A stretch of 31,623 nucleotides of DNA, taken from assembly GCA_024404275.1 (NCBI GenBank), contig JAKSQG010000002.1, positions 1-31,623 of the forward strand, in the 5' to 3' direction. The position numbers were made by a program, and so were the translations under genes. Of this stretch, positions 4,374 to 27,464 are shown one piece after another (positions within the stretch are counted from its first letter, which is position 1; every line of letters starts with the position of its first letter). The stretch is from Clostridia bacterium. Lineage in GTDB: Bacteria; Bacillota; Clostridia; Christensenellales; Aristaeellaceae. Below the pieces are notes generated by a model. It was not told where the DNA came from, made no database searches, and saw only the letters and a program-made list of their open reading frames with translations.

Positions 4374-5279
4374 TTAGCCCTGCAGCAGGTACCAGCGGAG
4401 GACGTCCTCGATCCAGTAGGTAAACTCGGTGGAGGGCAGGCGCGCCGCCAGCGGACGCAGGCGGGCATAGCATGCGGCGCCGTCCTCCGCCCCCTCCCAG
4501 ATGTCGGCAAAGCAGAAATCATATTCGCCGCCCTGCAGATTCTCCAGATAGGCAAAGGCATCCGCCTTGATGACGCGGATCTTTTCCTTGTTCGGAAAAT
4601 GCGGCAGCAGCTGTTCGTTGAACAATTGAATGACCTCGTCGCTCAGCTCGATGATATCGATGCTTTCGACGTTGTCCTTCTGGCTGACGGCGAAGGGATA
4701 ATAGCCCAGTCCCAACCCCAGCACCAGCACGCGACCGTGCGCCTGCCGCATCTGCTTTTTCATGGAGTTGATCTAAGAGGGGCACACGCTCATCCACGGC
4801 ATGTTGCCCTCATAAACGGCGGGGAAGGAAACTTCGCCGGAGCAGAATCCAAGACGCGGCACCGTCAGCGGGGCATTCACATCGGGCATATTGTACTGAA
4901 ACAGTTCGCCGCGGCTGTAGGTGGCGCGCCCCAGGGTGAAGCGTCCGATGCGCTGCGGCTCAAACCGCACAGCCTTCAGATAGGGCTCCTCGGCAAAATC
5001 CCGCGGCGTGTAGCGGCGGGCGTTTTGAAACAGCACCCGCGTGTAATCATCAAACTCCGGCTTGTCCAGCCCCACGGCTTCGGCAAAGCGCTTCATCACG
5101 TAGAAGGTCTCGGGGTCGTCAACGAGCCACCCGCGGTCGGCATAGCGGCGGCGCTCTTCTTCGGTCATCCCCATGACGAAGGCGGCGGCTTCCCCGGGGG
5201 CATAATCAATGTAGGGCGCCTGCTCGGCGATCATGCGGGAGATCTATGCTGAAAGCTGTTCGGAAAATGCTTTATCCAT
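4374..5279 (-). CDS. Spermidine-synthase-like SAM-dependent methyltransferase containing two in-frame TAG codons
   Basis: ORFs 4374..4763 and 4773..5234 are in the same frame and are separated only by TAG 4773-4775. The frame continues upstream through TAG 5244-5246 to ATG 5279, which lies 7 nt after a GGAGG (5287-5291). The motif RVLVLGLGLGYY...IDIIELSDEV...IKADAF fits the spermine/spermidine synthase fold. Stop codon is TAA. Confidence 0.8.
4773..4775 (-). other. In-frame TAG codon read as sense (methyltransferase, internal)
   Basis: ...NMPWMSVCPS-TAG-INSMKKQMRQAHGRVLVLGLGLG... The frame is the same on both sides. Confidence 0.8.
5244..5246 (-). other. In-frame TAG codon read as sense (methyltransferase, codon 12)
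   Basis: MDKAFSEQLSA-TAG-ISRMIAEQAPY. Only the upstream ATG (5279) has a GGAGG RBS; the ATG at 5234 has none. Confidence 0.65.
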
Positions 5280-5293
5280 CGGGAGTCCTCCGG

Positions 5294-6754
5294 TCAGGGA
5301 AGCGTCACGCTGTCGATCGTGCTGCTTTCCGTGTAGAACAGGGCGGTGCCGTTGACGGCGACTGCGTCATGCAGGGCATCCAGCGGATAGAATGCCACCG
5401 TGCGGGTGAAGCCCTCGCCCTGCAGGGTCAGCACGGTATGCGGCGTGCCCTGCGGCATCCATCCCGCGGGCAGGCGGGAGGAGGCTTTGAAGGTCACAAG
5501 ACCCTTGTAAAAGGTCAGAAAGGCGTTGCTGTCCACCGCGGCACCGTCTTTGGTGACGGACAGGTCATAGAGCACATTGCCATTCGCGTCGGTCTGAAGC
5601 TCGTTGTTTTCCAGCACGCTTTCGGTCAGACGGATGTCATAGCGGGCAGCCTCACCGTTTTTTGTCCATTCCAGAACGGTGAGCATATTGGTGGGAATGC
5701 TGACAGGCAATGCCGACAACAGCGTTTCATATCCTTGCGACAGCAGGAAGCCCGCCGAAAAATCGGTCGCCTTGTACACCAGATCGCGGTACAGGCAGTA
5801 GAAGCTGACATCATTGGCAGGATCGCCGCAGGCAAAGGTCAGGCTGTAGGGGTCAAGAGTCGTCTCGGCGGCGGTGTTGCCCTCACTGTCGTAGCCCGTC
5901 ACCACGCTTGCGGCAATGTCCAGCGTGACCACACGGCGGGGCGCAACCAGACCGTAGGGGGGCAATTCCGCCCCTTCTCCGGCCACGCACTGCGCCAGAC
6001 GCAGTCCTTCCAGCTTGGAGAGCAGCGTCTCCACGGCGGCGGTGCTGAGCGGGTATTCAAAGGGGGAGGTCATGTACCAGCCCTCGCTGTGGCGCTCCAT
6101 GCGGAATGGCGCATCCCCTTCAAAGGTCACGGCATCGATGAGGTCGGCCCGCAGCGCCAGCGATGGCACGGTGTGCAGCGCACGGGAGGAAAGGCACAAT
6201 GTATCGTACATGTCGCGGGAGACGGCGTACACGGTGTCATCGTTCTCAACCATGAAATAATAGCGCACCATCTCCTCGGGAACGCGTGCGCCGATGCGGT
6301 AGCACAGGCGGCTGCCGTCGGTGTAGTTCACCTCGGCGCGGATGCACTGTGCCGCCTCCAGCCCAAAGTCGGCTTCCGTCAGCCCATTGAAGCTGCCAAG
6401 GCGTCCCACGGTGTATTCGGTGATCACCGTGGCGCCCTCGTAAAGGAAAGAGGAGAGCATGCTCTGATTAAAGCGGAAGCCGTCATCGCCTGCCATGTGC
6501 CACGTGCCGTCCTGCTGAAGGACAGTGTAGGTCTCGTCGGCGTTGGTGACGGTCATCGAAACGATCTCTTCGATGCTGCGGTTGGAAAAGACGGTGGTGG
6601 TGTCTGCTTTTCTCGGCAATTCCACCACGGCGGGGCGGCGGGCAAAATGCACGGCACAACCGATGCCCGCGGCCAGCAGCAGAACCGGCAAAAGCAGCAG
6701 CAAATGGTTCTTTTTGCTCTTGGGACGTACGGTTTTTCTTCTGACGGTGTTCAT
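5294..6754 (-). CDS. DUF4340-like membrane-anchored protein (accessory to the GldG-type ABC system)
   Basis: The ORF is 486 aa with an N-terminal basic stretch and a TM segment (KKNHLLLLLPVLLLAAGIG). Its ATG overlaps the TGA of the upstream gene (ATGA at 6751-6754). Stop codon is TGA. The family call is from memory of typical GldG-operon context. Confidence 0.75.
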   Translation of the reverse strand: MNTVRRKTVRPKSKKNHLLLLLPVLLLAAGIGCAVHFARRPAVVELPRKADTTTVFSNRSIEEIVSMTVTNADETYTVLQQDGTWHMAGDDGFRFNQSMLSSFLYEGATVITEYTVGRLGSFNGLTEADFGLEAAQCIRAEVNYTDGSRLCYRIGARVPEEMVRYYFMVENDDTVYAVSRDMYDTLCLSSRALHTVPSLALRADLIDAVTFEGDAPFRMERHSEGWYMTSPFEYPLSTAAVETLLSKLEGLRLAQCVAGEGAELPPYGLVAPRRVVTLDIAASVVTGYDSEGNTAAETTLDPYSLTFACGDPANDVSFYCLYRDLVYKATDFSAGFLLSQGYETLLSALPVSIPTNMLTVLEWTKNGEAARYDIRLTESVLENNELQTDANGNVLYDLSVTKDGAAVDSNAFLTFYKGLVTFKASSRLPAGWMPQGTPHTVLTLQGEGFTRTVAFYPLDALHDAVAVNGTALFYTESSTIDSVTLP

Positions 6755-26129: not shown

Positions 26130-26158
26130 TTGCTAAAAAACGCGGCTTGTGTTATACT
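26130..26158 (+). promoter_or_regulatory. Sigma-A-type promoter of murA
   Basis: TTGCTA (26130-26135), a 17-nt spacer and TGtTATACT (-10 at 26153-26158). Confidence 0.6.
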
Positions 26159-26198
26159 GAATGTTGCAACTCTATGAGAGTGAGGAGAAGCGTAACGC

Positions 26199-27464
26199 AT
26201 GGACCGTTACAAGCTGCTGATCCGGGGCGGAAAGCCCCTTATGGGAGAAACAAGCGTTTTCGGAGGGAAAAACACCTCTGTGGCTGTTCTGCCCGCGACC
26301 CTTCTTTGCGATGAACCCTGCGTGGTGGAAAATCTGCCCGATATTGAAGATATACATGTCATGCGCGATATGCTGGAGCTGCTGGGCTGCGGCATCGTTT
26401 ACGAGCCGCAGGAAAGGCGCATGACCATCGATCCCCGCGGTGCTTCCGGTTATACCGTGCCTTTTCAGTATACACAGCGCATGCGCGCCCGCTATTATCT
26501 GTGGGGCGCGCTGCTGGGCCGCTGCGGCCGCTGTGACGTGGGTTATCCCGGCGGCTGCACCATCGGCAACCGTCCCTTTGAACAGCATATCAAGGGCTTC
26601 ATTGCCCTGGGCGCCAAGGTGGAGGACCGCGGCGGCATGGTGTATGCCGACGGCGAAATGATGGGTGCCGAGGTGTATTTTGACCGTATCACTGTGGGCG
26701 GCACCGTCAATGTGATGCTGGCGGCGGCCAAAGCCCGCGGAAATACCACCATCCACAATGCCGCACGTGAGCCGCATATCGTCGATCTGGCGAACTTCTT
26801 GAATTCCATGGGCGCGCATGTGCGCGGCGCCGGTACCGATACCATCCGTATCCGCGGCGTCGAATATCTGCACAGCACCCGCTATTCCGTCATTCCCGAT
26901 CAGATCGAAACGGGCACGCTGATGATCGCCGCCGCGGCAACGCATGGCGATGTGACCATCCGCGGCTGCATTCCCACCCATATGGAAGCGCTGACCGCCA
27001 AACTGCTGGAGATGGGTGTGCAGGTGACCGATACCGACGATACCATCCGTGTGCGCAGTGACAGCCCCCATCGTGCCGTCAATGTCAAAACGCAGGAGTA
27101 TCCCGGTTTCCCCACCGACCTGCAGCAGCCCATGAGCGCCATGCTGACCTGCGCAAAGGGCAAAAGCAAGGTCATCTAGGCCATTTTTGAAAACCGCTTC
27201 AAGCACCTTAACGAAATGACCCACATGGGTGCCGATGTGCAGATCGTGGATCAGACCGCCATCATTGAAGGGGTGTAGGCCCTGTATGGCGCGCCGGTGA
27301 AGGCCACCGATCTTCGTGCGGGCGCCGCGCTGGTGGTGGCGGGCCTGATGGCGGAGGGCACGACCGAGATTTATGAGCCGGGCTATATTGAGCGCGGCTA
27401 CGAACACATTGAGGATAAGCTGCGCGCTTTGGGCGCGTAGATCTGGCGGGAAGAATTGCCGTGA
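26199..27464 (+). CDS. murA: UDP-N-acetylglucosamine 1-carboxyvinyltransferase containing three in-frame TAG codons
   Basis: ORF 26199..27179 continues in the same frame through TAG 27177-27179 and TAG 27276-27278 with conserved MurA sequence ([13 protein letters not shown]..., [41 protein letters not shown]). After TAG 27438-27440 it reads IWREELP and then TGA 27462-27464. The joined length is 421 codons. A GAGGAG RBS lies upstream. Confidence 0.9.
27177..27179 (+). other. In-frame TAG codon read as sense (murA site 1)
   Basis: ...[27 protein letters not shown]... Confidence 0.85.
27276..27278 (+). other. In-frame TAG codon read as sense (murA site 2)
   Basis: ...[31 protein letters not shown]... 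Confidence 0.85.
27438..27440 (+). other. In-frame TAG near the murA C-terminus, probably sense
   Basis: ...[22 protein letters not shown]. The TGA overlaps the GTG of the next ORF (GTGA at 27461-27464). Confidence 0.6.

Follow-up and report, generated by a model that had tools for sequence, protein, structure and literature searches.

The DNA considered here is a 31,623-bp stretch (hereafter the window) of the Clostridia metagenome-assembled genome (MAG) GCA_024404275.1, contig JAKSQG010000002.1, positions 1 to 31,623, and the question it raises is how the codon UAG is read where TAG occurs in frame in five of its genes. The window has a G+C content of 57–63%, belongs to a genome of about 60% G+C that is not reduced in the stretch seen, and includes core cellular genes such as murA, ftsY, smc, leuS, plsX and rnc. 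Translation with TGA and TAA as the sole stops, and with frames picked via third-position G+C, gave a gene table of 24 complete genes and two cut at the window ends. Within these, eight in-frame TAGs are found: three in murA, two in a methyltransferase-like gene, and one each in ftsY, smc and the gene of a HAD-family hydrolase. A first-pass annotation, made from the sequence alone, had located eight in-frame TAGs in these five genes and proposed that UAG is a sense codon throughout the genome; all eight were re-found, in frame, and the comparisons set out below point to glutamate as the amino acid.

Each TAG-containing gene was aligned with its homologues, and the residue column under the TAG was read. 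Conspecific strains, at 97–99% nucleotide identity (L001, L004-L012 and L030-L040), were obtained from independent ENA and Logan assemblies via exact-protein look-up, and a sister species (GCA_045599485.1, contig JAZRWA010000059.1, loci L003 and L021) could be compared at 91% nucleotide identity over about 31 kb. Near relatives, at 81–88% protein identity, are represented by L002, L013 (GCA_017549335.1), L014 and L015 (GCA_017532155.1), and L027. The five genes, their TAG codons, and two Glu codons that are TAG in the sister species, are as follows.

4374..5279, minus strand: class I S-adenosylmethionine-dependent methyltransferase-like gene, 301 codons, TAA end; weak spermidine-synthase fold match (Pfam Spermine_synth, E 1.1e-5)
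4773..4775, minus strand: TAG, methyltransferase codon 169; column Glu throughout the 29 homologues (CPS-E-I motif), with GAG as the codon of the sister species
5244..5246, minus strand: TAG, methyltransferase codon 12; GAG in the sister species, Glu in conspecific proteins P0513 and P0515; variable column with Glu commonest (7 of 28)
5259..5261, minus strand: GAA, methyltransferase codon 7; TAG in the sister species
10596..11522, minus strand: ftsY, encoding the signal recognition particle (SRP) receptor, 308 codons, TGA end; Pfam SRP54 (E 6.9e-76) and SRP54_N, PDB FtsY matches at E 1e-87
11151..11153, minus strand: TAG, ftsY codon 124; column Glu in 24 of 25 relatives (79–88% identity)
11536..15096, minus strand: smc, 1186 codons, TAA end; Pfam SMC_N and SMC_hinge, match to Bacillus subtilis Smc at E 4e-79
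14446..14448, minus strand: GAG, smc codon 217; TAG in the sister species (L003, L021, GCA_045599485.1), Glu in the window, L004, L031, L013 and L014
14488..14490, minus strand: TAG, smc codon 203; GAG in the sister species as well as conspecific L004 and L031, with Glu likewise carried by B. subtilis Smc and by relatives L013 and L014
17221..17880, minus strand: HAD-family hydrolase gene, 219 codons, TGA end; Pfam HAD_2 (10–184) spans the TAG
17662..17664, minus strand: TAG, HAD codon 73; shared with strains L005 and L006 and with the sister species
26199..27464, plus strand: murA (UDP-N-acetylglucosamine 1-carboxyvinyltransferase), 421 codons, TGA end, three in-frame TAGs; Pfam EPSP_synthase 9–408, E 2.8e-88
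27177..27179, plus strand: TAG, murA codon 327; column Glu in 25 of 25 homologues, GAG in conspecific strain L001
27276..27278, plus strand: TAG, murA codon 360; variable column (R, S, P, K, T and others), Glu in the closest relative, P0001
27438..27440, plus strand: TAG, murA codon 414, eight codons ahead of the TGA stop; column Glu 12, Asp 10

The joined genes are of ordinary length, with the values proposed earlier for smc (1186 codons), ftsY (308) and murA (421) obtained again; homologues of murA are 420–421 amino acids long, with identity up to 86%, and the 347 homologues of the methyltransferase-like gene are about 300 amino acids. That family sequence continues across the TAGs, as the first-pass annotation had read from the translations, is borne out both by the homologues, which extend through the sites, and by Pfam domains that span them (SRP54 99–298, EPSP_synthase 9–408, SMC_N 3–1175 and HAD_2 10–184). 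Two further TAGs that look in-frame, at 18170 and 22363, lie upstream of true start codons, and are thus non-coding and excluded from the count; the former falls within a flavin mononucleotide (FMN) riboswitch.

Among the 9643 sense codons of the window (the earlier estimate had been about 9800), there are 8 TAG, 358 GAG, 330 GAA and 266 CAG, so that TAG would make up about 1% of the codons for Glu. An internal TGA, TAA or frameshift was found in none of the window genes across the 9643 codons checked, in agreement with the earlier reading, and an independent recount of the ends of the 24 complete genes returned the same 15 TGA, 9 TAA and no TAG. The standard bacterial code (table 11), in which TAG serves as terminator at a share of gene ends, therefore fails to describe this stretch, with 0 of 24 ends in TAG and eight internal TAGs with homology continuing downstream. 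TAG makes up about 15% of stops in Firmicutes, and at that share the absence from 24 ends has a probability of about 0.02. The deficit becomes much stronger once the sister species and the relatives are included.

In-frame TAGs of this kind might arise as nonsense mutations during genome decay, or as artefacts of sequencing, assembly or DNA damage, particularly as every TAG is a single G-to-T change away from GAG, as errors from oxidative damage typically are, and the source is a MAG. The same TAGs, however, recur in independent assemblies from other sequencing runs, and so are not assembly errors; nine or more further samples contain them, as does a species that has diverged by 9%. The TAG at ftsY-124 is shared by the sister species and by 10 of 10 additional contigs of the same species as the window, which come from independent ENA and Logan samples. 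Those at murA-360 and murA-414 are both present in strain L001, which comes from another sequencing run; the L001 gene call P0002 ends exactly at codon 360, and homologues extend seven residues beyond codon 414. The N-terminal 72-amino-acid fragment of the HAD protein exists as eight sequence variants in public data, every one of them ending at codon 73. Decay would also be expected to mix lesion types, unconserved, and errors would not strip TAG from all gene ends. A pseudogene or sequencing artefact is excluded by the conservation of TAG across assemblies and a diverged species and by the lack of other lesions, and an explanation of this type is given almost no weight; the earlier proposal of a real and non-degenerate genome in which TAG is a rare sense codon is, by contrast, strongly backed by the comparison of strains and species.

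The identity of the inserted residue, which the first-pass annotation had left open, can be approached through the alignment columns. Glu makes up 96–100% of four of these (murA-327, ftsY-124, methyltransferase-169 and smc-203), none of which contains Gln, and TAG is thus found at conserved positions of essential genes in consistent alignment with one amino acid. Summed over the eight sites, the profile log-odds are +13.5 nats for Glu, with His the runner-up at -8.5. The column at HAD-73 (Y 10, F 4, E 4 in the closest full-length homologues) is uninformative on the amino acid, being variable and drawn from homologues of just 35–41% identity. Taken together, the columns indicate that the amino acid at TAG is most likely glutamate.

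Comparison between strains and species leads to the same residue by another route. Six independent TAG differences were found among the window, the strains and the sister species, and five of these are TAG/GAG and one TAG/GAA, and neither CAG nor any other non-Glu codon is ever the counterpart. In the alignment with the sister species, which covers 7935 codons, TAG stands opposite TAG, GAG or GAA alone, and never opposite a non-Glu codon. Within the species, the murA of L001 has GAG at codon 327 and retains TAG at codons 360 and 414. In the methyltransferase, where codon 169 is Glu in the conspecific proteins P0514, P0515 and P0518 and a stop/TAG in P0513, all four TAG/Glu combinations of codons 12 and 169 occur among public protein fragments (P0513-P0518). 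These combinations, and exchange with GAG and GAA only, imply that TAG acts as a synonym of GAG, and this comparison is the strongest of the evidence for TAG as a putative Glu codon.

Glutamine, as in the phage ‘code 15’ or supE-type suppression, is the other residue that has to be weighed, along with the remaining standard amino acids. When UAG is reassigned, it is most often to Gln (PMC9523058; PMC8629427); this residue is a conservative substitute for Glu, and Escherichia coli FtsY carries Gln at the ftsY-124 position. Against this, the four columns of 96–100% Glu are without Gln, and in the log-odds Glu leads by more than 20 nats. CAG is the counterpart in none of the six TAG differences, despite C-to-T being the easier mutation and 266 CAG codons being available in the window, which counts further against Gln. 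A reading of UAG as glutamine or another standard amino acid is accordingly held to be very unlikely, and glutamate is retained in what follows.

The codon that follows TAG is itself not evenly distributed. ATC comes directly after four of the eight in-frame TAGs (those at 5244, 4773, 11151 and 27438, where TAG-ATC corresponds to Glu-Ile), and after 4.2% of GAG and GAA codons, an excess with P ~2e-4 calculated post hoc; CTG and CAG come after the two TAGs that the sister species alone has. The excess could reflect a preference for this context in decoding, or GAGATC could be a hotspot of mutation.

Loss of TAG as a terminator extends beyond the window. In the sister species, the only TAG ‘ends’ are artefacts created where smc, ftsY and the HAD gene are split, every real end being TAA or TGA. 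In the near relatives, TAG stops number 0 of 57, which at the same 15% share has a probability of ~1e-4 taken alone, and their called genes contain no in-frame TAG. The stop-codon tally that the first-pass annotation had called for, made here over the window, the sister species and the near relatives, thus yields zero real TAG ends, with ~60 kb of the two TAG-containing genomes sampled. In the more distant L028/L029 (72% MurA identity, 62% G+C), 22 of 23 gene ends are TAA and there is one apparent TAG stop. This pattern, from ~70 kb of relatives, suggests that the clade purged TAG and that a sub-lineage then regained it as a probable Glu codon.

The relatives L013 and L014 also favour TAA (24 of 34 stops), and such TAA-heavy stop usage is atypical of G+C-rich genomes; it may be linked to the release-factor history of the group. 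A separate observation concerns GCA_017549335.1, in which pheS and pheT form a single 1146-codon open reading frame (L013 99-3539, minus strand), the codon that is the pheS stop TAA in L014 (1-1842, minus strand) reading GAA there. Here again, a stop codon differs by T/G at its first position, and the joined frame could be a true fusion or an error.

A mechanism that would account for glutamate at UAG involves a dedicated CUA-anticodon tRNA, presumably charged with glutamate by glutamyl-tRNA synthetase (GluRS), for which the simplest origin would be duplication of tRNA-Glu(CUC) with a change of C36 to A. Release factor 1 (RF1, encoded by prfA) would have been lost or disabled, with release factor 2 (RF2) alone terminating at UGA and UAA. 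In RF1-free E. coli, unassigned UAG is read near-cognately as Gln, Tyr, Asp or Val, and not as Glu (PMC6207430), which makes a dedicated Glu tRNA the economical explanation here. Historically, TAG may first have been purged as a stop and left unassigned, later coming back as a Glu codon via G-to-T change in GAG; such codon capture is the likely route given near relatives with neither TAG stops nor in-frame TAGs.

That UAG is read as Glu in a lineage of uncultured Clostridia comprising the window MAG and the sister species GCA_045599485.1 is assigned a probability of roughly 85%. Several points weigh against this conclusion. Its backing lies entirely at the level of sequence. Three of the eight sites (murA-360, methyltransferase-12 and HAD-73) fall in variable columns and are not discriminating alone, and E. 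coli has, as mentioned, Gln at one of the four that are conserved. Sense use of TAG stands, yet the genome-wide scope claimed in the first-pass annotation is an extrapolation from ~32 kb here and ~31 kb of the sister genome. Searches for the predicted tRNA also count on this side: with ARAGORN, no tRNA gene was found in the window or in 13 related loci, and so none with a CUA anticodon there. A pattern for a CUA-bearing tRNA-Glu anticodon arm followed by a T-loop (CCGCCCTCTAAMGGCGGN{8,9}GTTCRANNC) gave two matches among 185,579 species genomes, both in Lachnospiraceae and none in this clade, and a scan of JGI metagenomes for a Firmicutes tRNA-Glu D-arm with CUA gave four matches, again none in this clade. 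As both patterns presume a particular tRNA-Glu body, MAGs often come without tRNA genes, and the MAGs of this lineage possibly lie outside the collections, these two negatives do not establish absence of the tRNA.

The matches in other organisms are nonetheless relevant to the proposed origin. In Lachnoclostridium phytofermentans KNHs2131 (NZ_JPOF01000002.1, L019 4658-4870, minus strand), a tRNA(CUA) stands in tandem with tRNA-Glu(CUC), from which it differs only at C36A; it has the appearance of a tRNA-Glu serving as a natural amber suppressor, here in a cultured member of the Lachnospiraceae, and it places the proposed tRNA one mutation from a normal tRNA-Glu. A similar tRNA(CUA) is present in a Lachnospiraceae MAG (L020 5401-5474, plus strand). 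The metagenome tRNA(CUA) genes with a tRNA-Glu-like D-arm (L022 1242-1313, L024 2236-2309, L025 9637-9708 and L023 1368-1439) comprise two in low-GC phage-like tRNA arrays, one on a 53% GC contig with portal, terminase, capsid and Mu-F genes, and one on a 1.4-kb low-GC fragment, raising the possibility that some TAG-recoded phages insert Glu instead of Gln.

Such a tRNA could also act in an ambiguous code, in which RF1 is kept and a natural amber-suppressor tRNA-Glu(CUA) gives partial read-through, with TAG both a stop and a Glu codon. A suppressor-type tRNA beside tRNA-Glu(CUC) does exist in the presumably standard-code Lachnospiraceae strain, and the base after four of the eight TAGs is A, which in this position 3′ of TAG favours amber suppression in E. 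coli. In an amber-suppressor strain, however, TAG would still be a normal terminator, and no TAG terminator occurs in any sampled gene of the lineage: the 24 genes here have none, the real gene ends of the sister species have none either, and the count in the relatives is 0 of 57. TAG is, moreover, fixed in the SRP-receptor gene ftsY in all strains sampled, and the three TAGs in murA would cube any inefficiency of read-through. Ambiguous decoding is therefore considered improbable.

Pyrrolysine (Pyl) is, to our knowledge, the sole natural decoding of UAG in cellular prokaryotes; pyl genes are present in some Firmicutes, and the ARAGORN label for any CUA tRNA is ‘Pyl’. It could be inserted by Pyl-dependent read-through, or through a code in which all TAG is Pyl, as in some archaea. 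Here, TAG replaces a strictly conserved Glu and swaps with GAG or GAA only, a bulky lysine derivative is implausible at the invariant Glu positions of MurA, FtsY and the methyltransferase, and both a methylamine methyltransferase and the pyl genes (pylTSBCD) are absent from the window, so that pyrrolysine is held to be extremely unlikely. The first-pass annotation had described Pyl as confined to methylamine methyltransferases, a statement that is outdated, as some archaea read all TAG as Pyl (bioRxiv 10.1101/2024.09.30.615893); the main conclusion is unaffected by this correction.

Reading UAG as glutamate has immediate consequences for annotation. The GenBank record (locus tags MJ136_00200 to MJ136_00270), made with table 11, lists the TAG-split pieces as separate proteins, among them MCQ2452996.1 and MCQ2452997.1 (methyltransferase, 4374-5234), MCQ2453004.1, an ‘AAA family ATPase’ that is the SMC N-terminus (14488-15096), and MCQ2453009.1 (HAD, 17662-17880). 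As a result of this splitting, databases contain truncated proteins for the lineage, including those of essential genes, and completeness or pseudogene statistics for it would consequently be wrong.

Two RNA elements lie close to the HAD gene and are of separate interest.

17911..18010, minus strand: gene for a small SRP RNA of the bacterial type (Rfam RF00169, 76 bits), flanked by the HAD gene and the riboswitch and ~6 kb from ftsY
18130..18246, plus strand: FMN riboswitch (Rfam RF00050, 116.8 bits), directly upstream of an ATP-binding cassette (ABC) transporter operon at 18335-22324

The operon encodes two BPD_transp_1 permeases, an SBP_bac_8 binding protein and an AP_endonuc_2/xylose-isomerase-like protein, which is an unusual set for FMN control.

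A full-text literature search found no published case of UAG reassignment in bacteria. PMC8629427 (Codetta, 250,000 genomes) has all known bacterial code changes reassigning UGA, and bioRxiv 10.1101/2024.09.30.615893 counts three bacterial codes. Tables 4, 11 and 25 are the only bacterial codes discussed in the accessible parts of bioRxiv 10.64898/2026.05.24.727570 (gTranslate, 2026) and PMC13462651 (a 2026 Microbial Genomics paper). We consider it likely that the window belongs to a natural bacterial code with UAG as Glu, which would be the first code of a cellular bacterium to reassign UAG and the first to imply natural loss of RF1, reached via codon capture in a wider, TAG-purged clade of rumen-type Clostridia, one sub-lineage of which re-uses TAG with a tRNA-Glu(CUA).

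If this is true, a new code table would be added and RF1 would be shown to be dispensable in nature, with the TAG-free relatives as an apparent intermediate stage for weighing the codon-capture against the ambiguous-intermediate model. A natural tRNA(CUA)/GluRS pair and an RF1-free chassis would become possible for genetic-code engineering, and the finding would bear on phage and horizontal-transfer barriers in the rumen.

Stop-to-sense changes are established in cellular bacteria as table 4 (UGA as Trp), in Mollicutes, several endosymbionts and Eggerthellaceae MAGs, and table 25 (UGA as Gly), in Absconditabacteria and Gracilibacteria. The lineage described here resembles these in that the codon lies in frame in conserved genes and has been dropped as a terminator, and in its expected mechanism, namely gain of a cognate tRNA and loss of one class-I release factor, both of which are predictions in this case. 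It differs in the codon, UAG and not UGA, in the factor expected to be lost, RF1 and not RF2, and in the amino acid, Glu.

With regard to the amino acid, the closest likeness is to the eukaryotic UAR=Glu codes of peritrich ciliates (table 30) and Blastocrithidia nonstop (PMC12153298), where UAG is also glutamate, presumably through a stop-complementary tRNA-Glu. In those codes (tables 30 and 31), however, UAA is reassigned too, whereas TAA here ends 9 of 24 genes and is never in frame, and the eukaryotic release system depends on eukaryotic release factor 1 (eRF1); the origin is independent. Phage ‘code 15’ (TAG as Gln), found in crAss-like, Lak and other gut phages, shares in-frame TAG in a prokaryotic setting and a CUA suppressor tRNA, the latter being predicted here; that code is, however, one of viral genomes in standard-code hosts, while TAG in the window lies in cellular core genes with Glu as the probable residue, and neither Gln in the four conserved columns nor any TAG-CAG difference was found. 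The archaeal ‘Pyl code’, as described in bioRxiv 10.1101/2024.09.30.615893 and attributed to Kivenson et al. 2025 in the gTranslate preprint, is likewise a reassignment of UAG from stop to sense in a prokaryote. There, as here, coding density is little affected because TAG is rare. It differs in concerning archaea, a 22nd amino acid and pyl genes, where the conserved Glu columns of the window argue for a standard amino acid.

E. coli C321.deltaA is an engineered strain from which all UAG has been removed and RF1 deleted. The TAG-free relatives resemble it, having neither TAG stops nor TAG sense codons, but are natural; the lineage of the window resembles a chassis of this type after UAG has been handed to a new tRNA, with loss of RF1 a probable part of the same history.

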